Virus record (IMG/VR): IMGVR_UViG_3300005403_000005
Coordinates: 26,308 to 90,307 of that record
From: a virus
Taxonomy: Duplodnaviria; Caudoviricetes
Reading direction: 5' to 3' (one strand)
Length of the DNA: 64,000 nt
Positions within the stretch are counted from its first letter, which is position 1. Every line of letters starts with the position of its first letter. Made by a program: the position numbers and the translations under genes. The notes under the pieces are model-generated. The model worked only from the letters and a program-made list of their open reading frames with translations, did no database searches and was not told the origin of the DNA. Below, piece by piece: positions 2 to 28,292 of the stretch.

Positions 2-3000
2 GGAATACCAACAAACGGAAATGGAATCATTCCACCCTTTGTAACCAATGTCACGCTTTTTGAAGAATATGAACTTGTAGGCGACGTTTATAAGTCAGCA
101 CTTAGTGTAAGTTTTGAGCGCGTATCCCTCCCCAGCGAATCGGACGCATACATCAGGAACTACGAAATAATCTACAGTAATGATGAGGGCGAAACGTGGT
201 TATCTGCTGGGTTTGTATCCGGAATTGGCAATGGTCGCTTCCCAGTGGAAATTGGGGAAGCGTATGCGGTTTGCGTGAAGCCATATACCAATTATGGGAA
301 AACAAACGATATTGAGCTATCTGCAAATGCACTTGACCACCAAGCTTTCATATTGGGAAACCAAGCTACCCCACCAGCAGTAACATACATCAATGCCACT
401 GGGAAGACCTTTAGCATCATCATTGAAACCGACGTTCCAATAGACCCTACGCTTGATGCGATTGAGGTATATGCCGCCACAACAAACGACAGGGCTCAGG
501 CGGTAATCGTGGGGAGGAGCAAGTCTGGAAGGATTCAGCACACGGGAGTTGCCCAGAACCAGACTTACTACTATTGGGCGAAAGCCGTCAATACAGCAAA
601 GAAGGAGAGTGAGTGGTATCCGCTTTCTGATACTGCCGGGGTTGCTTGTCAATCCTCCACCGACCCCTCAGATGTTCTTGGGGTATTGTCTGGGGCGATT
701 ACCGACAGCGAGCTCTCCCAGTCTCTTCTCGACACGATAAACAATAATAGTGCCGGAGTACAGAGCGTCGAAGAGCTTCTTCAGAATCAGTGGACGATGA
801 AGATTACTGAGGGTAATCGCGTTACTGGCGTTGGTTCAATCATGTACCCCAAGTGGGATGTTGCTATGGCATACACTGTGGGAACAATGGTTGAGGGGAG
901 TAATGGTTCTATCTATAAGGCACTTCAATCAAGTACCGGAAAGGACCCGCTTTCAAATCCTACATACTGGCAGCTAGTTCCATACGGAGTAAAATCGGAA
1001 TTCACCATCCTATCCGATAAGTTCCAAGTCATGAGACAGGATGGGACAGGAAGTGCCATTACGCCATTCGTAATCGGTCTTGTAAATGGCGTTGATACTG
1101 TTGGCGTCAATGGTCAACTTGTAGTTGATGACTCAATCAGCGCCAGAAGCATCAAAACTGATGAGCTAATAGTAGGCGAAAATGTCACGATGGGGCCGAA
1201 TGCGGTTATAACTTGGGGTCAGGTAGCAGGAGGTCCTGCAACTTATCAACAATCCACCGACCCGATACCATTGCATCCGACATTCAGCCGTGCGTCAACC
1301 GCCTACCTCGCCAATGGTACCAAGATTGACAGCGGCAAGCCCCGGATTGAGCCCGGTAAATTCGGCGGGGCGATTATGGTGGAGGAGGGGACGACGAACC
1401 TGCTCCTGCCGGGGCAATACAACGCTTCTGATACCACACTATTTTCGGTAGATACTGACTGTGTCTTAAGCCTTGAAACAACAAGCCCGATTAGTGGTGC
1501 GAGTAGCATCAAGTGTGTGACCCCAGCGGTAGCTGTAAAGAGACTTTATTTCAGCATTAATAATAAACCAGCGGTAACAGCAGGACTAGCATATTCAGGA
1601 CAAATGTTGGTTAAAGGCTCAGGGACAGTCACATTTGTAATGAGGGCATATAATAGTTCTAATGTGGCAGTTGGAGATTCCGCATCAATAGACGTTACAT
1701 TAACTGCGACCCCACAATTAATAAAAATTGAGAACTTTATTATTCCTACTGGAGGTGTAAATCTACAGATAATCATTGGTTCGAAAAACGCCGAAGTTTG
1801 CACAATAATTGCCGATTGCTATCAGTTAGAACAAAAACCCTACGCCACCTCGTTTATCGATGGGACACGGGCGGCTGAATCTTTAACTGTGCCGTCAACT
1901 GGTATGTCTCCCGCTGCCGGAACGATAGAAATAGATATTGAAGTCACAGAGCAGACAAAGAGGGTATTGGTCCCAGGCACAAGTCATCTCCTATTCCAAA
2001 TCAGTCGAGCAAACAATGCGAATGCGCAAGGTATTTGCATCGCCCACAATAACAGCGGCTTCGTGTTTGTTACAGCGGATGATTCAAATGCTCAATCTTC
2101 ATCCGCCTATGTAACAAATGCCAATATGCCGAATGGGTGGCGCCGCTTTGCGGTAACGTGGGATGCAACTTCTGCAATATGGTATGTGGATGGAGTTCAG
2201 AAAGGTATAATCGAAGCTCCAAAACTCCCGTCAGCGTTCTCGTCACTCATCCACTTAGGTTGCCACCCTGTAAGCTCATTATCAACAGCTAACTCACTGA
2301 TTGATTGCGTGAGATTGAGTAACTATAAGAGGTCTGCCGCCGAAATACTCGCTTCAGCCACCAGCGGCCTACCAATGGAGCGTGATGCATACACTACGGC
2401 CCTATTCGATTTCAACACTGGCATCGAGTGGCTGAACAACGGCACACTCAAAACCTACAACGGCGTGGCGTGGGAGGATGCTGCTACTTGGGGAGCGCCA
2501 ACTGGGACGTATGTTGGAGCAACATTGGCGGATACCGTCAGCACTGTAGCCACGAACTTCAATACCCGTAATGACCGCAACGCCACCGCCGTTGTCGCCC
2601 CTACCGTCGCCGACGCCACCGGCACCATCGACCACACCGTGAACACGGACGGTTCGGTGGATGTCTCTTTCGAATGGTCGTGGGCTGGCACTGAGGCGGA
2701 TATTGACGGGTTCGTAGTCTACGTCCACGACAATGGCACTACGACCCCAACGAGCCAGAAGGTACTCGCAGCCACGGCGGACGCTTCGGTACAGGTGTTC
2801 TACCTCACCCCCCAACGTCGGGCTTTCATCCTCTACGGTGTCGCGACGAACCATTGGTACACGTTTGGGGTGCAGGCGTACCGGATTGTGGACCAAGATG
2901 TTGACGCCACGGGCACCAAGAAGAGCGCCATTGTCCAGCCCTTGAGCACGGCCACGGAAACGACCTACGGGGCTTATCGCCCTGCTTCGTCGGTGGCCTT

Positions 3001-4891
3001 CGCTGGTGATATTACCGGAACTATCGCAGGAACAGCGGCGAGTACGGTGGTGAGCAATGCAAATAGTGCCTATACGTTAGTCTCAGACATCGCATCTGAC
3101 AGCAAGCTCACCCCAGTCGAAAAACAAGACATCCGCAGGGAGTGGAATGCCATTTACTCGGAGAAATCCTCTCTGGACGCCCAGGCGACAGCACTCGGAA
3201 TCACGACTGAGAAGACGACTTATGACAACTCTATACAGGCGCTCGGCACCTACCTCAACGGTGGTACGGCTTACACCCTCGGTGCAACACCGCCATCTTG
3301 GATAACCGACGCCAACCTGTCAGCCACCACAACAATTGTGGGGGCAACGTTCAGGAGCACGTTCAAGACCTATTACGACGCCAAGATTGCCCTGATAAAC
3401 AAGATGGCGGCGGTGGCGGCTACAAAGGCGGATTGGACTGGGGTAAGTGGTACAGGTAAACCAGCCGACTACGCCACGAAAAACACCGCGTCCAGCGGCA
3501 CAACGCCCCACGCCAACCCGCAGGCCGGAGATACGTGGTTTAACTCTGCCACCACTGACGGCACCTATTACGCGCTGACCAGCTACAGCTACAACGGCAC
3601 TGCTTGGATACCCTCCTCACCGCGTGGGACGTACATCACGAATAATGGGGTGTATACCGGCCTGATTGTGGCCGACCAAGTACAGACCGGCGGGTTGCGT
3701 GGCATCAACGTCAACGCCGCCAGCCATACAACGAAGGGAAGCTATCTTACTCAGGCCTGCGCTGCTGGAGCGACCACGCTGTATGTGCATAATACTGAGG
3801 ATTTCCCGACGAGCGGTGAAGGCTGGTTATTAGGCACAGCGTCGTCCATCATATCCTGGACCGGGAAAACTGCAACAAGTTTGACTGGGGTTTCAGTCCC
3901 TCCTTCATCTGGGGCGATCCCGGCCCAAACTGCTGGCACTACCATTGTTCCGAACGAAAAAGTCATAGTTATAGATGATGCATCCAATGAGATTATTTTT
4001 CTGGGGAACAATGGCACTGTCAATACGTTGTTATGCTCAATCGGGATAGCTTCGGTCGATACAGACTCATATATAATTAATCTGCCAAATTGCGGTGATC
4101 ATTTTGGAATAAATCTCAGAGGAACCAATAAACTTATAAATGCAGTCGAGCAGTCTAGTGCCTATTACAACGATTTGATTTATGCCAAGACGATCAATCA
4201 GTATAGTGTTTCGTTCCACGGGATAGCTGTTGGTGCTGATGGCACTGGGGTGGTTGGAAGAGCGGAAGGAGCCCGTGGAGCTGGGGTTTACGGATATGCT
4301 CCTGGGGCTGGTAAGTTTGGCGTCTATGGTAAATGTGAGACTGCGACCACAGGGTACGATTTTTACGCAGGCGGAGCTGGGGTAAACTATGGACCGTTTA
4401 CTGGATCACACGACGGGCTGGTTCTCAAGGGCTTTTGCGCTCAACCAGGTGATATATTGGTTGATGTAGCAGTAGTTGAAAGAGCCAATGTCTCAAACGC
4501 TATCTGCCAAAACGATTTATCAACCGTGCCACAGCAGCAATGCGTTGTAGGTGTTTATTTGACCCATGGGCCCATGGACACAAAAAATCCGCCATCCGCG
4601 CTATGGGATAAAGTTATTGGGTTACCAAACCCAATAATATTAACGCTATGCGAAATCTACGACCTGGCTGTGTTTAATGCTGTTGGAGAAGGGTTGATTA
4701 ATGTCTGCAAAGATGGCGGAGATATTCAGGCAGGAGATTATATTTGTTCATCAAGTAGGCCAGGAAAAGGAATGAGACAAGATGATGACTTACTGCATAA
4801 CTATACGGTAGCAAAAGCAAGAGAAGATTGCATATGGGCGGAAGGCGAAGATGATATAAGGATGATTGCCTGCACATATCACTGCGGATAG
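2..4891 (+). CDS. Tail fibre / host-specificity protein, 5'-truncated; FN3-like, CBM-like, LamG-like and C-terminal chaperone-like segments
   Basis: Frame is open from base 2 (GIPTNG...) into the 245 ORF. Contains WDVAMAYTVG..IYKAL..YWQL (CBM5/12-like), PTFSRASTAY...VEEGTTNLL fibre motif, VTWD..SAIWYVDG...IDCVRLS (LamG-like) and FTGSH...GEGLINV...GDYI C-terminus; lies just before lysis genes. Confidence 0.8.
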   Translation, partial: GIPTNGNGIIPPFVTNVTLFEEYELVGDVYKSALSVSFERVSLPSESDAYIRNYEIIYSNDEGETWLSAGFVSGIGNGRFPVEIGEAYAVCVKPYTNYGKTNDIELSANALDHQAFILGNQATPPAVTYINATGKTFSIIIETDVPIDPTLDAIEVYAATTNDRAQAVIVGRSKSGRIQHTGVAQNQTYYYWAKAVNTAKKESEWYPLSDTAGVACQSSTDPSDVLGVLSGAITDSELSQSLLDTINNNSAGVQSVEELLQNQWTMKITEGNRVTGVGSIMYPKWDVAMAYTVGTMVEGSNGSIYKALQSSTGKDPLSNPTYWQLVPYGVKSEFTILSDKFQVMRQDGTGSAITPFVIGLVNGVDTVGVNGQLVVDDSISARSIKTDELIVGENVTMGPNAVITWGQVAGGPATYQQSTDPIPLHPTFSRASTAYLANGTKIDSGKPRIEPGKFGGAIMVEEGTTNLLLPGQYNASDTTLFSVDTDCVLSLETTSPISGASSIKCVTPAVAVKRLYFSINNKPAVTAGLAYSGQMLVKGSGTVTFVMRAYNSSNVAVGDSASIDVTLTATPQLIKIENFIIPTGGVNLQIIIGSKNAEVCTIIADCYQLEQKPYATSFIDGTRAAESLTVPSTGMSPAAGTIEIDIEVTEQTKRVLVPGTSHLLFQISRANNANAQGICIAHNNSGFVFVTADDSNAQSSSAYVTNANMPNGWRRFAVTWDATSAIWYVDGVQKGIIEAPKLPSAFSSLIHLGCHPVSSLSTANSLIDCVRLSNYKRSAAEILASATSGLPMERDAYTTALFDFNTGIEWLNNGTLKTYNGVAWEDAATWGAPTGTYVGATLADTVSTVATNFNTRNDRNATAVVAPTVADATGTIDHTVNTDGSVDVSFEWSWAGTEADIDGFVVYVHDNGTTTPTSQKVLAATADASVQVFYLTPQRRAFILYGVATNHWYTFGVQAYRIVDQDVDATGTKKSAIVQPLSTATETTYGAYRPASSVAFAGDITGTIAGTAASTVVSNANSAYTLVSDIASDSKLTPVEKQDIRREWNAIYSEKSSLDAQATALGITTEKTTYDNSIQALGTYLNGGTAYTLGATPPSWITDANLSATTTIVGATFRSTFKTYYDAKIALINKMAAVAATKADWTGVSGTGKPADYATKNTASSGTTPHANPQAGDTWFNSATTDGTYYALTSYSYNGTAWIPSSPRGTYITNNGVYTGLIVADQVQTGGLRGINVNAASHTTKGSYLTQACAAGATTLYVHNTEDFPTSGEGWLLGTASSIISWTGKTATSLTGVSVPPSSGAIPAQTAGTTIVPNEKVIVIDDASNEIIFLGNNGTVNTLLCSIGIASVDTDSYIINLPNCGDHFGINLRGTNKLINAVEQSSAYYNDLIYAKTINQYSVSFHGIAVGADGTGVVGRAEGARGAGVYGYAPGAGKFGVYGKCETATTGYDFYAGGAGVNYGPFTGSHDGLVLKGFCAQPGDILVDVAVVERANVSNAICQNDLSTVPQQQCVVGVYLTHGPMDTKNPPSALWDKVIGLPNPIILTLCEIYDLAVFNAVGEGLINVCKDGGDIQAGDYICSSSRPGKGMRQDDDLLHNYTVAKAREDCIWAEGEDDIRMIACTYHCG

Positions 4892-4901
4892 AGAGGATAC
4901 G

Positions 4902-5081
4902 ATGACAGAAAAAGACCTGAGCAGAGAAATCATGTTGGCTGATACCGTGGCCGAACGAGGCAGACAGGTGCTGCAACAGAGCCAGCAAATCGCCCAACTG
5001 GAGCATGAGGTTGAAAGACTTCGCGAAATCATCAAAACTATGGAGGACAGAAATGCACGTTGTAATGAAGTACCTCAGTAA
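4902..5081 (+). CDS. Small coiled-coil hypothetical protein
   Basis: GAGG RBS before ATG 4902; follows fibre stop. Confidence 0.5.
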   Translation: MTEKDLSREIMLADTVAERGRQVLQQSQQIAQLEHEVERLREIIKTMEDRNARCNEVPQ

Positions 5082-5301
5082 TGTGTGGCGTGCGCTCTGG
5101 GCAATCATCGTCGATATCGATAAGCTTCTCAATGCAATCGCTCTTGGCGACCCAGACGAGACAATCTCCTCCCGTGTAGGGAAACGAAGAGATGGCGCAG
5201 AGCGCTTCTGGGCGTGGGTGGTTGACAAGCTCTTCTTCTGGCAAAAGAACCACACGAAGAAATCAGTACAGCCCGATGAGGGTGGGGATTCAGTAGCATA
5301 A
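5053..5301 (+). CDS. Conserved phage protein (LNAI..GDPDETISSR motif)
   Basis: GGAGG RBS before ATG 5053; motif familiar from phage tail/lysis regions. Confidence 0.55.
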   Translation: MHVVMKYLSNVWRALWAIIVDIDKLLNAIALGDPDETISSRVGKRRDGAERFWAWVVDKLFFWQKNHTKKSVQPDEGGDSVA

Positions 5302-5520
5302 GATGTGACGATAGGGCGCTAGAGATAGCGCCCTTTTCATTTCTGGGAGGAACGATGGAGACACAGATTGTCCAAATCGAGCCGACAATACACCTTTGGG
5401 CTTTTCTATTTTGGATGGGGTTTGTTTTGTCGATAAAGGTTGGCTTCAATATTGTCGCACAGATGCGCCGCTGCGACAAGCTGAATGCCCAAATCGCAGA
5501 GAGGGATTCGGGGGGTGATA

Positions 5521-5787
5521 ATGCTCGACGTTTTGATGGACGATATAGGTCGCAAATTCGTCGATAACGCCGGGAAAATCTTCAGCTTCATTTTCGGCAT
5601 TGTCGGCTGGCTCGCTGGGAAGCTCCTCAAGAAGTTCGAGGAATCGATAAGTGCCGTAAACGAGAAATGCGATGAAAATCATGACGAGATGTACGCCAGA
5701 ACTGAAGCGCTTGAGAAAGAAATCTCGGCGCTCACAAGCAGGCTTGCAAAGCTTGAAGGCGCACATGAGGTCAATCACAAGGGGTAA
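5521..5787 (+). CDS. Small membrane/coiled-coil protein, possibly holin-associated
   Basis: One hydrophobic segment (IFSFIFGIVGWL) then coiled coil; directly upstream of endolysin. Confidence 0.45.
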   Translation: MLDVLMDDIGRKFVDNAGKIFSFIFGIVGWLAGKLLKKFEESISAVNEKCDENHDEMYARTEALEKEISALTSRLAKLEGAHEVNHKG

Positions 5788-5791
5788 TGTA

Positions 5792-6247
5792 ATGGACAGG
5801 AAGATTGATACCATCATCATCCATTGTGCGGCGACGCCCAATGGGAAGCACTTCACCGTAGAGGATATCGATAGCTGGCACAGGGAGCGGGGATTTGCCC
5901 GCTCCTATCGTGCCATGAGAGCCCTCAATCCCAGTCTCACTTCTATAGGCTATCACTTCGTCATCTACATCGATGGCTCAGTGCATACGGGAAGAGGAGT
6001 TGAGGAAATCGGAGCACACGCCGCAGGGATGAATGCCCACTCTATCGGAATATGCCTCATTGGGTCAGATAAGTTCTCTGATGCCCAATGGGATGCACTT
6101 CACAACCTCGTGAACAGCCTGAAAGCGACCATCGGCGGGGAAATCAAGGTTGTGGGACATCGGGATATTCCGGGCGTACATAAGAGCTGCCCCGGCTTTG
6201 ATGTGGCATCGTGGCTTGAGAAAGAGAAAGAATCGGAGGTGGCATAA
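5792..6247 (+). CDS. Endolysin, N-acetylmuramoyl-L-alanine amidase (Amidase_2, T7 lysozyme-like)
   Basis: IIIHCAAT, IGYHFVI, GAH...N..SIGICLIG, GHRD...KSCPGF Zn-amidase motifs. Confidence 0.9.
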   Translation: MDRKIDTIIIHCAATPNGKHFTVEDIDSWHRERGFARSYRAMRALNPSLTSIGYHFVIYIDGSVHTGRGVEEIGAHAAGMNAHSIGICLIGSDKFSDAQWDALHNLVNSLKATIGGEIKVVGHRDIPGVHKSCPGFDVASWLEKEKESEVA

Positions 6248-6726
6248 TGGGCGGATTCTGGGGTGCGCTCGCAGAGGGAGGCGTTACCGGGATATTCAAA
6301 GGCGTAGGAGAGTTTGCGAAGGATATCAGAGCTGCCGTCACCGGGGAGGAGGTTCTCTCATCGGAACAGAAGATGAAACTCCTTGAGCAGGCTGCGGCAC
6401 TAGAAGCCTCAGTCCTTCAAGCTGACCTCGCGGTAATACAGGGTCAAGTAGATATCAACAAGATTGAAGCGGCAGACCCGACCATTTTCAAAAGTGGGTG
6501 GCGTCCGGCAGTGGGGTGGGTTTGTGTCGCTGGACTCGCGTACACATTCGTATTAAAGCCGATATTGCCGTGGGCTGTTCAAGTAGGATGTCAGATTTTT
6601 GGCTATGAATCAGCTCTCCCAGTAATGCCCGATATCCCAATGGGGGATTTGGTGATTCTCCTCAGTGGCTTGTTGGGTTTGGGCGGATTCCGCACATTTG
6701 AGAAATTCAAGGGTGTCTCTCGATGA
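6247..6726 (+). CDS. Holin of 3TM (GTA-type) family
   Basis: GWRPAVGWVC...LLGLGGFRTFEKFKGV; TAATG coupling to endolysin. Confidence 0.8.
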   Translation: MGGFWGALAEGGVTGIFKGVGEFAKDIRAAVTGEEVLSSEQKMKLLEQAAALEASVLQADLAVIQGQVDINKIEAADPTIFKSGWRPAVGWVCVAGLAYTFVLKPILPWAVQVGCQIFGYESALPVMPDIPMGDLVILLSGLLGLGGFRTFEKFKGVSR

Positions 6727-23453: not shown

Positions 23454-23875
23454 GCAAATACGTAGCACGATACAGCATCGCATCATCAAGTTCAAGTTCA
23501 CGGCACTATACGGTTTCATTTGCACCTGATGGCGTTGGGCAATGCTCCTGTGTCGCATGGACTCGAAAGCGCATCAGGTGCAAGCATATCGCGGAGGCAG
23601 AGCGTGTTCATCACGATGATATCGCAATGACATTCCTCAGGTACTATCGTGACATCCATAAGACACTGCCCATTACGATAGCCGCGAGAGAATGGTATAA
23701 CAAGGGAGTTGGGATTGAGGCAAATCCGCTCACCAACCAGAAGCCTGATATATGGGCTGACGAGCCACCTCCACCGAAACCACCGCGAAAGCAGAGGGGG
23801 AAGCCTGCTGTCAGCGATGATGACAAGACAGCTTTGGAACGCATTAAGGACAATGCGCGGTGGAGGCTGAAATGA
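23450..23875 (+). CDS. SWIM Zn-finger protein with C-terminal ARWRL tag
   Basis: QCSC...RCKH; ends LERIKDNARWRLK. Confidence 0.7.
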   Translation: MSKYVARYSIASSSSSSRHYTVSFAPDGVGQCSCVAWTRKRIRCKHIAEAERVHHDDIAMTFLRYYRDIHKTLPITIAAREWYNKGVGIEANPLTNQKPDIWADEPPPPKPPRKQRGKPAVSDDDKTALERIKDNARWRLK

Positions 23876-25935
23876 TTCCATTTGTTCATCTCCACCTCCA
23901 TTCGCATTATTCGACGCTCGATGGCCTGGGGAAGGTCGATGAGATTGTGAAGCGTGCAGTCGAGATTGGTTCTCCCGCTGTCGCAGTCACGGACCACGGC
24001 TCGATATCCTCGCTCCCCGAGCTGTTTGCGGAATGCGAGAAGGCGGGAATCAAGCCAATCCCCGGCTGCGAATTCTACGTTGTTGATGATGTAGAGGGGA
24101 AGAAGGGGGAGCGCAGGATTCACCTCACGGTCTGGGCGAAAAGCTGGAAGGGTGTTCAAAACATCCTTTCCCAGCTTACCGCCGCAAACAAGCAATTCTA
24201 CCATCGTCCACGGCTTACGTGGGAGCAGGCGATGCAGTTCGAGGAGTGTTGTATCGGCACTGCATGTACCGTTGGGCCGCTCATGTGCGATGACTACGAG
24301 GATAGGGTTGTGAAGCTATCCTCCGTCTACGGGGAAGACCTCTACCTTGAGATAATGCCAAACGTAATATCGGAGGATGGGCAGGATATCCAGAGCATCG
24401 CCAATAATCGTGCGATTGAGATGTCCCAGAAGTACGTCATCAAGCTGATAGCAACCAATGATGCGCATTACGTTCGCCGGGAAGACTCCTTCACCCACGA
24501 AATACTCCTCGCCATCCAGAGTGGCTCCACGCTCAAAGACCCGAACCGCTGGAAGTTCGGGAGTGACGCCTTCTACATGAGGGATGGCGCAGAGATGATT
24601 TCCGCATGCCAGAGCGTCGGTATCCACTCGTCACACACCATCTCCGCAATAGCAAACACCATTGAGCTTGCCAACAAGATAAATGTCGAGATGCCCAAGT
24701 TCGAGGTGAAGCTTCCCAGCCTCTATCCAGATGATGCCGCAGTCTTTCAGCAGAAGGTGATGGATGGCTGGAATAAGCTGATTGTGGCAACAGGGAAGGT
24801 GAATCAGGAATACAGGGAGCGTCTTGTCTATGAAATTGGCGTTATCAATAAGCTTGGTTTTATTCGCTATTTTCTTATTGTTGAGGACATCATCAATTGG
24901 TCGCGTGCCAATGGAATTATGGTTGGTCCTGGTCGTGGTTCTGCTGCTGGCTCCCTTGTGTGTTATCTCATGGGTATTACACAAGTTGACCCAATTCGTT
25001 TCGGACTATATTTTGAGCGATTCCTGAACCCGGAGCGGATTGACCTCCCTGATATCGACGTAGATTTCGCGGACAATCGCAGGGATGAGGTTTTCGCATA
25101 CATCAAGGCGAAGTATGGCGATGATAAGGTGGGGCGGATAGGGACATTCAACGCCATGCAGATTGCCGGGGCTTTCCGCGATGTCGCCAAGGTCTATGAT
25201 GTCAACCTCCTGACCGTAAACATGCTCTCCAAGCAGATAGAGGATGTCGAATCCTTTGAGAAGGTTCCGGAGCTTGCGAAATTCAAGGCGGATAATGCCG
25301 CTCTGATGGAGCAGGTCTTCAAGATAAACGGGACGATTCGCAGTCTCGGGACTCACGCATGCGGCTTGGTCATCTCCTCCGAGCCCCTCGTAAATACGGG
25401 TGCCATTGAGAAGCATGGCGATAGCGAGACAATCAACTGGGATAAGAATGTGGCTGAGAAATTCGGACTCCTGAAGGTTGATATTCTCGGACTATCGACA
25501 CTCTCCATCCTCTCCAAGGCGAGGGATATCATCAAGGTTCGTCGTGGCGTGGATATCGACTTCACATCAATCCCGCTCGACGACCAGAAGACGCTTGAGC
25601 TCTTCCGCAGGGGTGAGGGTGTCGGGGTGTTCCAGTTCGAGAACTGTATCTCTGGCGATGCGATTGTTGATGGGGTTAAGCTTAAAGACCTTTATGTGAA
25701 AAATGTCTATAAATCTATTCGCTGCCTAGATGAATCGTCAATGGTGATAAAGAAGGGCAGGGTAAAGAAGGTTGTTTACTCTGGGGTGCAGAAGGTCTTT
25801 AAGCTGAAGACGAAAAATGGCAAGGAGCTTAGGCTCACAGAGGAGCATCCAGTTTATGTAAGGGGCGCAGGGTGGGTAAAATTGAAGGATGTTAAGGAGG
25901 GTGATGAAATCCTTACGATAAGGAGGAAGTTGTGA
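23872..25935 (+). CDS. dnaE: DNA polymerase III alpha, N-terminal half, fused to N-intein
   Basis: HLHLHSHYS PHP, TDHG, TNDAHY, GRGSAAGSLV, PDIDVDF, THACG, KVDILGL, GVFQFEN then intein Cys1. Confidence 0.95.
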   Translation: MIPFVHLHLHSHYSTLDGLGKVDEIVKRAVEIGSPAVAVTDHGSISSLPELFAECEKAGIKPIPGCEFYVVDDVEGKKGERRIHLTVWAKSWKGVQNILSQLTAANKQFYHRPRLTWEQAMQFEECCIGTACTVGPLMCDDYEDRVVKLSSVYGEDLYLEIMPNVISEDGQDIQSIANNRAIEMSQKYVIKLIATNDAHYVRREDSFTHEILLAIQSGSTLKDPNRWKFGSDAFYMRDGAEMISACQSVGIHSSHTISAIANTIELANKINVEMPKFEVKLPSLYPDDAAVFQQKVMDGWNKLIVATGKVNQEYRERLVYEIGVINKLGFIRYFLIVEDIINWSRANGIMVGPGRGSAAGSLVCYLMGITQVDPIRFGLYFERFLNPERIDLPDIDVDFADNRRDEVFAYIKAKYGDDKVGRIGTFNAMQIAGAFRDVAKVYDVNLLTVNMLSKQIEDVESFEKVPELAKFKADNAALMEQVFKINGTIRSLGTHACGLVISSEPLVNTGAIEKHGDSETINWDKNVAEKFGLLKVDILGLSTLSILSKARDIIKVRRGVDIDFTSIPLDDQKTLELFRRGEGVGVFQFENCISGDAIVDGVKLKDLYVKNVYKSIRCLDESSMVIKKGRVKKVVYSGVQKVFKLKTKNGKELRLTEEHPVYVRGAGWVKLKDVKEGDEILTIRRKL

Positions 25936-26615
25936 TTGAGTATCAAGCGAAGAATGGTCGGTGGTATGTGAGGTTTTCGACTATGAGTGATGCCCACTTG
26001 ATAGAGCGATTTGGCAAGGATAGGATGTTTAGGTCGCATTTTGTATATTGTTGTGCGCATGGTTTAAGCTCCATTCCTGAAAATTGTGTAATTCACCACA
26101 ATAATCGGGATAAATCTGACGATTCTTTGTCAAATTTGACACTTCTTGGCGTCGACGAGCATATTGACATCCATAAGGTTGAAAATGCAGAAAGGGCCTC
26201 TAAGGTTCATAGGGGAAGAAAGTGTAGTCAGAAAACTATTGAGCGTATGCGAAGCGTAGCAGGAAGGCGCGGCAATAATGGCATGTGGGAGAGCAAAGTG
26301 TGCCACTCTAAGGAGACAAAAAAGAAGATGTCAGAGTTGCAGGCAGGAAAAGACAACTCTTGTTTTCGGAGTGATATCGACCCAGAGTTGGTGAGGCTGG
26401 AGTATTTTGAGGAGCCCAATATTGCGAAGATTTCAGACAAGTTTGGGTGCTCAAATATAGCGATTAGAAACCGAGTTCAAGACTTGAATGACGGCTGCGA
26501 CATTGAGTGGAGCGAAGTCCTCTCTATAGAGGAGGATGGAGAAGATGATGTTTATGATATTCAGATGGAGGGGAATTCACCATCATTTGTGGCAAATGGT
26601 GTAGTTGTGCATAAC
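25645..26615 (+). mobile_element. Split intein (IntN 25645-25935; HNH+IntC 25932-26615) in dnaE
   Basis: CISGD start, LTEEHP block B, VYDIQM...FVANGVVVHN end followed by Cys; stop/start overlap GTGA with AGGAGG RBS inside the intein. Confidence 0.85.
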
Positions 26616-28088
26616 TGTGGCATGCAGTCGCTTCTTCGTGGCATCGAGTGCTCCACTTTTGATATGGCGACTGATACGACAGCGCTCTTCCGTCCGGGCT
26701 CGCTCAATTCCGGGCAGACTGCCCAGTACGTCCGTATCGCGAAGGGCGATGAGTATGAGTATTATGAGACTCCGCTTCTCAAGCCTATCCTTGGACCAAC
26801 GAAGGGAATCCTCGTCTACCAAGAGCAAATCATGCAGATATTCGTTCAGCTCGGCGGCTTCTCATGGGCTGGCGCTGACAAGATGAGAAAGATTATCGGC
26901 AAGAAGCTCGGCAAGGATGAGTTCGAGAAGCATCGTGCTGGCTTCGTGGATGGCTGCGTGGTGAATGGGATAGATGCCAATGCTGCTTCATCCCTCTTCG
27001 ACAAGATGGCGGAATTCGCCGCTTACTCCTTCAATAAGTCGCATGCAGTGGCATACACAATGCTCTCCTTCTGGTCGATGTATCTCAAGGCCCACTTCCC
27101 AGCCGAATTCTTTGCCGCACAACTGGGGAACAGCTCGGATGAGCGGATAACGCTTCTTTCCCGCGAAGCGGAGCGGTGCGGAATCAGGATTAGGTTGCCA
27201 GATGTCAACCTATCAACAGATGAGTATGTGATTGACGAGGATGGCGCAATAGTGCCTCCGCTGGGCATCGTGAAGGGGATAGGCACAAAGGCTGTTGAGG
27301 AGATTCTCAGGGCTCGCTCCGATGGTGCATTTCTCTCTGAGGCTGATTTTCTCTCCCGCGTCCAGAAGCGTCAGTGCAATTCGAGAGTTCATGGAGCTCT
27401 TGTCCGTGCTGGTGGCTTTGAATCTCTGGGCGTGCGGGAGGACAGGGAAGAGGAGCGTGTCAAGAATTTCTCCGAACTGCTCCCCACGTACAACAATACG
27501 CCAAAGCTGGCGAAGGGTGGTGGGAATCTCAATCTCGCGGAGTTGAAGTCGATTCTCACCAATAGTGCGGTTTGTGCTTCAACTGCGAAGCGGAAATACC
27601 TCATGCCAGTATTCCCACAGAACACTGCGAAGCCGAGTATCATGATAATCAACAACCCGGTGAAGCGGGAGTACAAGCATCTGACGGCGGATAGCACAAA
27701 GTTTCTCGTCACTGAGCTGAAGGAGGTTGGGATTCTGGCAAGGGATATCTACTACACATCCCCCGTCAAGTGCTTCTTCGACCCCAAGGGTTCCCCAGCA
27801 CAACCAACAAAAGAATGCGAGGGGAAATGCACCGATTATCTCCGTCAGGAGATAGTAGCAGTGGGGCCGAAAATAATCGTCTGCTTCGCTTCAAGCCTTG
27901 TGCATCTCTTCACAGGGGATAAGAAGGCGAAGATGTCATCCCTGCAAGGTCAGGTGATATACAGCAAGCAGTTCGGCTGTTACGTTCTATTCTCCTGCTC
28001 CCCGCAGTTCGCATTCTTCAGCGAGGGTGGCGAGAATATGGATAAGTTCAGGGCGGCAATTCAGACGCTCGGTGGAATCTTCAAGTGA
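25932..28088 (+). CDS. dnaE: HNH endonuclease + C-intein + DnaE C-terminal half + UDG-like domain
   Basis: IHHNNRDKSDD..SNL HNH; NUMOD3-like HSKETKKKMS; LFRPG, YQEQIM, YSFNKSHAVAY, VKGIG; tail YYTSPVKCF...LRQEI....PKIIVCF. Confidence 0.9.
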   Translation: MIEYQAKNGRWYVRFSTMSDAHLIERFGKDRMFRSHFVYCCAHGLSSIPENCVIHHNNRDKSDDSLSNLTLLGVDEHIDIHKVENAERASKVHRGRKCSQKTIERMRSVAGRRGNNGMWESKVCHSKETKKKMSELQAGKDNSCFRSDIDPELVRLEYFEEPNIAKISDKFGCSNIAIRNRVQDLNDGCDIEWSEVLSIEEDGEDDVYDIQMEGNSPSFVANGVVVHNCGMQSLLRGIECSTFDMATDTTALFRPGSLNSGQTAQYVRIAKGDEYEYYETPLLKPILGPTKGILVYQEQIMQIFVQLGGFSWAGADKMRKIIGKKLGKDEFEKHRAGFVDGCVVNGIDANAASSLFDKMAEFAAYSFNKSHAVAYTMLSFWSMYLKAHFPAEFFAAQLGNSSDERITLLSREAERCGIRIRLPDVNLSTDEYVIDEDGAIVPPLGIVKGIGTKAVEEILRARSDGAFLSEADFLSRVQKRQCNSRVHGALVRAGGFESLGVREDREEERVKNFSELLPTYNNTPKLAKGGGNLNLAELKSILTNSAVCASTAKRKYLMPVFPQNTAKPSIMIINNPVKREYKHLTADSTKFLVTELKEVGILARDIYYTSPVKCFFDPKGSPAQPTKECEGKCTDYLRQEIVAVGPKIIVCFASSLVHLFTGDKKAKMSSLQGQVIYSKQFGCYVLFSCSPQFAFFSEGGENMDKFRAAIQTLGGIFK

Positions 28089-28097
28089 GGTGAACGT

Positions 28098-28292
28098 ATG
28101 GGTATGAAGTGGGAGCAGATTGACGATTATCATGTCAGGGCTAAGATTCCTGGCGGCTGGCTTGTGAAGGCATTTGAGGGTGTTTGTCACAACATGATAA
28201 GTGATGGAAGGGGCATGATGGATGGTTATGATTTCAGAGTCGCCATGTGTTTCGTTCCAGACCCCAAGCATGAGTGGGCCATCGAGGAGTAA
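28098..28292 (+). CDS. Hypothetical protein
   Basis: GAGGTG RBS. Confidence 0.55.
   Translation: MGMKWEQIDDYHVRAKIPGGWLVKAFEGVCHNMISDGRGMMDGYDFRVAMCFVPDPKHEWAIEE

Follow-up and report, generated by a model that had tools for sequence, protein, structure and literature searches.

How does a phage make one DNA polymerase from a gene that stops midway and starts again in another frame? The question is raised by dnaE, the gene for the alpha subunit of DNA polymerase III (Pol III), in a 64,000-nucleotide (nt) stretch of DNA, hereafter called the window, from the IMG/VR virus record IMGVR_UViG_3300005403_000005, a 90.3-kb entry with direct terminal repeats. The gene is spread over two open reading frames (ORFs). 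ORF1 closes with the N-terminal half of an intein (IntN), and ORF2 encodes an HNH nuclease that continues in frame into the C-terminal half (IntC) and the remainder of the polymerase. Our answer is that dnaE of this uncultured groundwater phage probably holds a naturally split class-1 intein that is derived from a fractured-gene cassette, carries its nuclease fused to IntC, and would join the two polymerase parts by protein trans-splicing. In fractured genes, the adjacent halves of a gene carry the parts of a split intein with a free-standing homing-endonuclease gene between them, and three of the published loci are DnaE loci (Dassa, London, Stoddard, Schueler-Furman & Pietrokovski 2009, PMC2677866).

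A preliminary description, made from the letters of the window, had proposed a naturally split intein with a fused nuclease. The ORF ends, the GTGA at 25932-25935, the AGGAGG and the motifs on which it relied were all found exactly where it had placed them. The locus consists of the following features, in window coordinates.

23860-25935, + strand: ORF1, 691 amino acids (aa), the N-terminal DnaE part (DnaE-N) followed by a 96-aa IntN; its C-terminal part reads GVFQFEN/CISGD...LTEEHP...IRRKL-stop (the slash marks the splice site).
23860-25644, + strand: DnaE N-extein, 595 aa, with the PHP domain, the Pol III alpha core and finger-domain positions 1-49; its last residues are GVFQFEN.
25645-25932, + strand: IntN, 96 aa, with Cys1 (CISGD) as block A and LTEEH as block B (TxxH); the TGA stop follows at 25933-25935.
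25920-25935, + strand: junction with translational coupling, consisting of the Shine-Dalgarno (SD) sequence AAGGAGG (25920-25926), a 5-nt spacer, and GTG (25932-25934) overlapping TGA (25933-25935).
25932-28088, + strand: ORF2, 718 aa, the HNH nuclease, then a 39-aa IntC, then the C-terminal DnaE part (DnaE-C).
25932-26498, + strand: HNH module, ORF2 residues 1-189, with an HNH_3 motif (48-72), NUMOD3 (125-144), a helix-turn-helix (HTH)-like segment (about 160-183) and the linker LNDGC.
26499-26615, + strand: IntC, 39 aa, ORF2 residues 190-228, with block F (DVYDIQM...SFVANG) and block G (VVVHN).
26616-28088, + strand: DnaE C-extein, 490 aa plus the stop, with Cys+1 (CGMQSLL), finger-domain positions 51-165, HHH_6 and a UDG-superfamily tail.

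Profile matches divide cleanly between the two ORFs. Positions 1-49 of Pfam DNA_pol3_finger close the extein of ORF1, and positions 51-165 follow directly after VVVHN/C in ORF2. Likewise, Pfam Intein_splicing matches ORF1 with its positions 10-93 (30.5 bits) and ORF2 with positions 106-155 (29.6 bits), each below the 35.8-bit cut-off and the two complementary. Because both profiles complement each other across the ORFs, the locus is one gene interrupted at one point by one two-piece intein. The halves of this essential DNA-metabolism gene are neighbours on one strand, and each carries part of the split intein. The gene-caller form of ORF1 (P0158) has 687 aa and begins at an ATG four codons downstream. 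The sequencing runs that contain this stretch were groundwater metagenomes in the main, and blastn of the locus against 50,697 GenBank phages returned no match.

The break between the two reading frames

The last two bases of the ORF2 GTG are the first two of the ORF1 TGA. Relative to ORF1 the frame of ORF2 is -1, and an error of one base might therefore, in principle, mask a contiguous intein. Two other groundwater studies supplied Logan contigs (X3, 8.5 kb; X4, 19 kb) over positions 23800-28150, each with 9 substitutions and no gaps, and these independent assemblies uphold the division of the gene into two ORFs that had been described. Contigs of a further run (X5) end at 25930 and restart at 25961, one of six low-coverage breaks, and are uninformative on the junction. 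Across four runs, ORF1 and ORF2 together held 36 variant sites, 30 synonymous and 6 non-synonymous, and neither dnaE half contained a stop or an indel in strains sampled from 2017 to 2025. Given this distribution of variants, both halves are functional genes in the sampled population, and purifying selection acts on both of them.

Signals for translation and recoding were inspected at the junction. The first 200 codons of ORF2 contain 15 in-frame start candidates, and of these the GTG has by far the best SD pairing (-12.2 kcal/mol, against -9.1 kcal/mol for the runner-up). A search of ORF2 for a separate start of IntC gave a TTG at codon 185 as the only nearby in-frame candidate, and its SD pairing is negligible (-2.5 kcal/mol). 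Reading of the 28-nt stretch that is open in both frames (25908-25935) revealed no slippery heptamer and no homopolymer run. No hairpin of the translation-attenuating type found at the loci of Dassa and colleagues was present beyond chance at the junction or the ORF2 start (z = -0.32), and no terminator was found between ORF1 and ORF2.

Related phages were compared for contiguous alleles, a check that the preliminary description had proposed. None turned up among 1.84 billion representatives searched exhaustively with HMMER. The search for longer proteins with a contiguous allele retrieved only unrelated intein-bearing polymerases matching IntC, and a word-based search with the IntN region retrieved the window's own protein alone. 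The comparison thus yielded no contiguous form in the protein collections, and a diverged virus contig with the same intein, IMGVR_UViG_3300037010_000836 (hereafter L054), was also split. In a wastewater relative 95-99% identical to the window (X6), contigs cover the extein flanks up to 25575 and from 26678 onwards, excluding the intein, and no contig bridges the two; this relative could carry an intein-less or differently occupied allele. The gap-free contigs, the variants, the start signal and the searches for a contiguous allele show that the split is a genuine two-ORF structure and no assembly artefact.

Intein halves, nuclease and relatives

All residues of a class-1 splicing reaction are present, namely Cys1, TEEH, His-Asn228 and Cys+1, and they are also kept in L054 (with CLAGD as block A) and in the proteins P0078 and P0081. 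Since all of them are intact, trans-splicing is the likely mechanism as judged from sequence. IntN aligned to residues of about 20-125 of solved inteins (Pho RadA and DnaB mini-inteins; E 1.5e-6 to 1e-4), with TEEH falling on TxxH and LTEEHP on the TPSHP and THDHP blocks. For IntC the alignment covered the C-terminal 43 residues of 4o1r, a DnaB mini-intein (E 9e-6), with VVVHN on block G. The stop and restart fall between about 93 and about 100 in mini-intein numbering. As the two halves align on either side of it, the break lies at the canonical endonuclease-insertion and split point of the HINT fold.

The two halves are oppositely charged. IntN has 23 K/R and 12 D/E (net +11), and the 39 aa of IntC before Cys+1 have 11 D/E and no K/R (net -11), so that a recount reproduced exactly the values that had been counted by hand. 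The polarity had been presented as reversed. It is indeed opposite to that of cyanobacterial DnaE, but it is not unique, as gp41-1 and L054 (+5 and -11) are alike in this respect. The insertion site in the finger domain (FQFE) does differ from the cyanobacterial DnaE site, as had been claimed. The cassette also looks foreign in base composition, with a GC content of 0.41-0.46 and a GC skew of 0.24-0.51, where the flanking dnaE has 0.50-0.55 and about 0.03-0.16, respectively.

Structure prediction of IntN with HNH-IntC as a complex scored 0.81, and the best of 3 controls scored 0.00. Of 78 solved complexes, 51 reach that mark, as do 2 of 108 mismatched pairs. Contacts agreed between runs by at least 81%, the partner pLDDT was at least 60, and the predicted IntN interface on ORF2 was limited to residues 188-229, which embrace IntC. 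Because split-intein complexes have already been solved, this pass may reflect likeness to them and not independent support.

The nuclease module scored slightly below the Pfam cut-offs for both HNH_3 (23.5 bits, cut-off 24.8) and NUMOD3 (20.0 bits, cut-off 20.4). Other comparisons nevertheless link it to HNH proteins. ORF2 residues 4-190 best match P0010-P0022 (E 4e-39 to 1e-19), stand-alone HNH proteins about 260 aa long, and all three relatives checked (P0010, P0011 and the HNH protein of L054) pass HNH_3 at 31-34 bits. Against the PHROG HNH families the best E value was 3e-12. The HNH motif residues H55, H56, N68, H77 and H81 are invariant in an alignment with five relatives (the L054 protein and four stand-alone ones), and the module is colinear with free-standing HNH proteins of 256-265 aa. 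Judged by these matches, the nuclease descends from a free-standing HNH family.

The module differs from these relatives at both ends. Upstream of ORF2, in the same frame and behind two stops, lies a relic of the N-terminus, NPYDKEEV, and the GTG codon of the conserved V-I-E has become the present start; at this 5' end, module and IntN remain in different frames. At the other end, the region in which Pfam calls HTH_28 in P0010 is missing, and the ORF2 frame passes through the five-residue linker LNDGC directly into the residue that matches the IntC Met of L054. The module thus has its own start but no stop of its own and runs in frame into IntC, where a fractured gene would have a free-standing endonuclease gene. 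Because the C-terminal part is gone, the frame is continuous into IntC and no usable internal start is present, we infer that the nuclease became fused to IntC through loss of its 3' flank. Two predicted proteins from other hosts, P0085 (169 aa) and P0082 (353 aa), have at the N-terminus a short HNH module with IntC and an extein directly behind it; either HNH is fused to IntC in these as well, or the gene calls are truncated.

L054 provides the comparison at the DNA level. It shares with the window the intein family, which is again split, and its finger-domain position, as well as the HNH family and the DnaE-UDG architecture, and has three genes.

2083-4269 (L054): DnaE-N plus IntN, with finger positions 1-50.
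4235-5005 (L054): complete, free-standing HNH gene, 256 aa, whose start overlaps the IntN tail.
4998-6695 (L054): IntC plus DnaE-C, with a 38-aa IntC that has its own ATG (Met), finger positions 52-163, HHH_6 and UDG.

The HNH stop and the IntC ATG of L054 overlap by 8 nt (ATGCTTGA). Window and L054 are 45% identical in IntN, 68% in IntC, 32% in HNH, and 35% and 29% in the two exteins. Conservation is thus higher in the cassette than in the host gene, in keeping with a mobile cassette that spreads horizontally by homing. At the junctions, the DNA of the window and that of L054 have diverged too far for an informative alignment.

Profile and sequence scans for related loci (with the ORF2 N-terminus, P0078, P0081, and the IntC and HNH alignments) returned one IMG/VR contig with this intein at this site, L054 (= L062 = L169). 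P0078 and P0081 start with Met-IntC and continue into DnaE-C at the same junction (...VVHN/CGM and CNM). In a metagenome scan with the IntC alignment, the 80 loci listed were all in other host proteins or at other dnaE sites. Intein-less relatives read FQFEN-SGMQ (L002), FQFEG-AGM (L003) and FQFES-ES-IQSLL (L004) at this position, in open frames of 1086, 1077 and 1076 aa, respectively; the spliced product of the window is expected to have 1085 aa, in line with these lengths. A degenerate DNA pattern for the empty FQFEN-x-GMQS site gave 0 matches in viral contigs.

Two further observations concern the extein. The UDG-superfamily domain at the DnaE C-terminus (window 27553-28088; Pfam PF03167, E 5e-10) is present too in the distant L054 (6240-6550), P0078 and P0037, so that the fusion is conserved in this clade of phage DnaE proteins. 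Just past the intein, in the finger domain, the 90%-cluster representative P0001 reads GDEDEDYETP and the window GDEYEYYETP (26757-26765), with two Tyr/Asp differences; this variant was absent from the four sequencing runs compared with the window.

Other inteins were encountered in phage dnaE. A sister strain from another groundwater study (X5 contig, P0002) has an insertion of about 834 nt in dnaE-C at window 27039-27042. The inserted element, an HNH intein of the contiguous cis type (CISGD...VTCN), separates FNK from SH in the conserved FNKSH motif, a site that is empty in the window allele and lies three residues from the cyanobacterial site, which we take to be at the AEY/CFNK junction. 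Because this second dnaE intein is polymorphic for presence and absence, homing appears to be ongoing in the groundwater phage population. In L058/L065 (2574-7514), L060/L070 (1326-6857), L092 and L093, dnaE is fractured at ...LFRPG/C..., with split-intein halves around an ORF of 351-358 aa that has a zinc-finger-like N-terminus; L060 has two more ORFs in the gap. Our guess is that the C-terminus of this ORF is a nuclease domain, and among the loci of Dassa and colleagues the Vsr-like ones may be their counterparts. L137 (3974-5230) has a dnaE C-half that opens with IntC at a further site (HN/CEELGAVKLDLLGL), so phage dnaE carries split inteins at several positions.

Proposed assembly and its alternatives

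We propose that in the ancestral cassette a free-standing HNH homing-endonuclease gene stood between IntN and IntC, and that the window lineage then lost, by deletion, the C-terminal domain and stop codon of the nuclease together with the start codon of IntC. The nuclease is now translated as an N-terminal extension of IntC-DnaE-C. Co-transcription of ORF1 and ORF2, coupled by the GTGA overlap and the strong SD sequence, would give roughly equal amounts of DnaE(1-595)-IntN and of HNH-IntC with the 490-aa C-terminal part of DnaE. The basic IntN (+11) and the acidic IntC (-11) would then associate and fold as one HINT domain, in which Cys1, the TEEH block, His-Asn228 and Cys+1 would carry out standard protein splicing. 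The predicted product is a polymerase of 1085 aa with the junction FQFEN-CGMQ, for which the expected tryptic junction peptide is ...FQFENCGMQSLLR. IntN and HNH-IntC would be released as by-products; HNH and IntC form one polypeptide, so splicing would remove the nuclease, in agreement with the preliminary description.

The nuclease probably serves to cut intein-less dnaE of co-infecting relatives near the FQFE-coding site, so that repair would copy the 971-bp cassette into these alleles. Invariance of the HNH motif residues with the relatives suggests that homing by this nuclease may persist. Because it is truncated, we put the chances that it still drives homing into intein-less dnaE alleles at about even.

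Several observations weigh against this account. The junction was examined in assembled contigs, which lose rare variants. The independent strains are about 99.8% identical and therefore share a single origin of the fusion, and only one diverged locus, L054, was read at the DNA level. An internal ATG at ORF2 codon 133 has a fair SD sequence (-9.1 kcal/mol, 12-nt spacer), from which a shorter form is possible. The window HNH is without the first 27 or so and the last 55-60 or so aa of its free-standing relatives, and the truncated nuclease may have lost specificity or activity. Finally, an extension of 189 aa on IntC could slow the association of the halves.

A more far-reaching reading, which we hold only tentatively and think rather unlikely, is that the locus is a living intermediate of the long-hypothesised route to inteins with endonuclease domains, in which a free-standing nuclease invades an intein and loses its flanks, with IntN and HNH-IntC acting as a two-piece homing endonuclease. 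The 3' flank is already lost and the 5' flank is one base out of frame. The reconstituted HINT domain might replace the lost C-terminal DNA-binding domain, as the splicing domain aids DNA recognition in contiguous intein endonucleases.

Of the rival explanations, the most serious is that the intein halves act as a non-splicing clasp, holding the polymerase pieces together non-covalently with no peptide bond formed, as has been proposed for the split of Aeh1 NrdA. Non-covalent assembly of a fragmented ribonucleotide reductase is on record (PMC3045599), and charge complementarity by itself would be sufficient for binding. A clasp, however, needs none of Cys1, TEEH, His-Asn and Cys+1, and all four are kept in the window, L054, P0078 and P0081. 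Moreover, the +1 residue is Cys here and Ser, Ala or Glu in the intein-less relatives, as expected of an active intein, and we consider a clasp improbable.

Two other rivals would restore a contiguous, cis-splicing IntN-HNH-IntC precursor. One is a frameshift in assembly or sequencing, or a very recent mutation, in such an intein. The one-base offset of ORF2 is what it would leave behind, and contiguous inteins of the same module order are known in NrdD, portal and SNF2 proteins. It is nevertheless very unlikely in the face of two independent assemblies without a gap over 4.3 kb, a strong SD sequence and GTG exactly at the ORF1 stop, protein collections without a contiguous allele, and the arrangement in L054, where the IntN ORF ends at the equivalent place and the HNH gene is separate. 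The other is a programmed -1 ribosomal frameshift or transcriptional slippage that joins ORF1 to ORF2. SD-like AGGAGG upstream stimulates frameshifting in dnaX and prfB, and the window has both this sequence just upstream and the -1 frame relation. With no X XXY YYZ heptamer and no A/T run in 25908-25935, no significant downstream structure (z = -0.32), and three ordinary, separate genes at the homologous L054 locus, we regard recoding as less likely still. Least credible of all is that the insertion inactivated dnaE and left the phage to use a host or other polymerase, as all domains are intact and the 2017-2025 variants are those of a maintained gene (30 synonymous and 6 non-synonymous, with no stops or indels).

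Fusion changes the position of the nuclease under selection. A stop or frameshift in the nuclease would now truncate the C-terminal half of the polymerase, and the frame of a selfish nuclease is therefore shielded by selection on the polymerase. The pair of the window and L054, with HNH fused to IntC in one and free-standing in the other, documents a step that had been modelled earlier by Dassa and colleagues and by Gosselin et al. For protein engineering, the locus offers a candidate split intein (96-aa IntN, 39-aa IntC, Cys1 and Cys+1, +11 and -11) with no detectable match to gp41-1 and a weak one to NrdJ-1. It is also a natural test case for the effect that a large N-terminal cargo on IntC has upon trans-splicing.

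Comparison with known systems

The closest published class is that of the fractured genes. Their endonuclease and IntC coding regions overlap by 6-69 bp at 15 loci, their endonucleases are GIY-YIG or Vsr-like, with HNH merely predicted to be able to fracture genes, and the loci were judged likely to be phage-derived (PMC2677866). The window resembles them in its phage-type origin, adjacent same-strand halves, a break at the endonuclease-insertion point, complementary charges, and an endonuclease coding region that enters the start of IntC. L054 has the classic arrangement, with an 8-nt overlap in the published 6-69 bp style; it keeps the complete 256-aa HNH gene and the IntC ATG, whereas the window has neither. 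What sets the window apart from the fractured genes is a nuclease in frame with IntC and not free-standing at its 3' end. This fusion corresponds to a half-completed step IIIa ('loss of the flanks') of the model in PMC2677866. A route in which an endonuclease gene invades an intein has also been argued for by Gosselin et al. (bioRxiv 10.1101/2025.01.02.630785).

The end state of such a fusion route is represented by contiguous HNH inteins in NrdD, portal and SNF2 helicase proteins (P0152, P0028, P0003-P0009), which have the same module order of IntN, HNH_3 (sometimes with NUMOD3 or HTH) and IntC. The window IntC is 50-73% identical over about 35 aa to the SNF2 inteins. Because contiguous IntN-HNH_3-NUMOD3-IntC inteins exist, this end state is viable. 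They are single cis-splicing polypeptides, whereas the window has a stop and a restart between IntN and HNH-IntC.

Among split inteins, the phage-type gp41-1 of Dassa and colleagues, for which a crystal structure exists, has a basic IntN and an acidic IntC, opposite to Npu and Ssp DnaE (bioRxiv 10.1101/546465). The window intein shares with gp41-1 this polarity, a short IntC and a metagenomic origin. The IntC of gp41-1 is without a nuclease, whereas that of the window carries one. Searches of the Protein Data Bank (PDB) gave no sequence match between the two at E <= 1. Among solved inteins, Pho RadA and the DnaB mini-inteins come nearest, with a weak match to NrdJ-1 besides. With Ssp and Npu DnaE the window shares the making of Pol III alpha from two genes by way of a split intein, with Cys1 and Cys+1. 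It differs from them in its site (FQFE of the finger domain, not the FNKSH region) and in its opposite charge polarity; moreover, their halves lie at distant loci and have no nuclease, whereas those of the window are adjacent and translationally coupled, with the nuclease attached.

A description of an in-frame HNH-IntC fusion on an intact split intein was not found in the literature searched, a limited library that makes this weak evidence. The arrangement as a whole is a derivative of the published fractured-gene class and introduces no new principle; its new element is the in-frame fusion of the HNH nuclease to IntC on an intact split intein.

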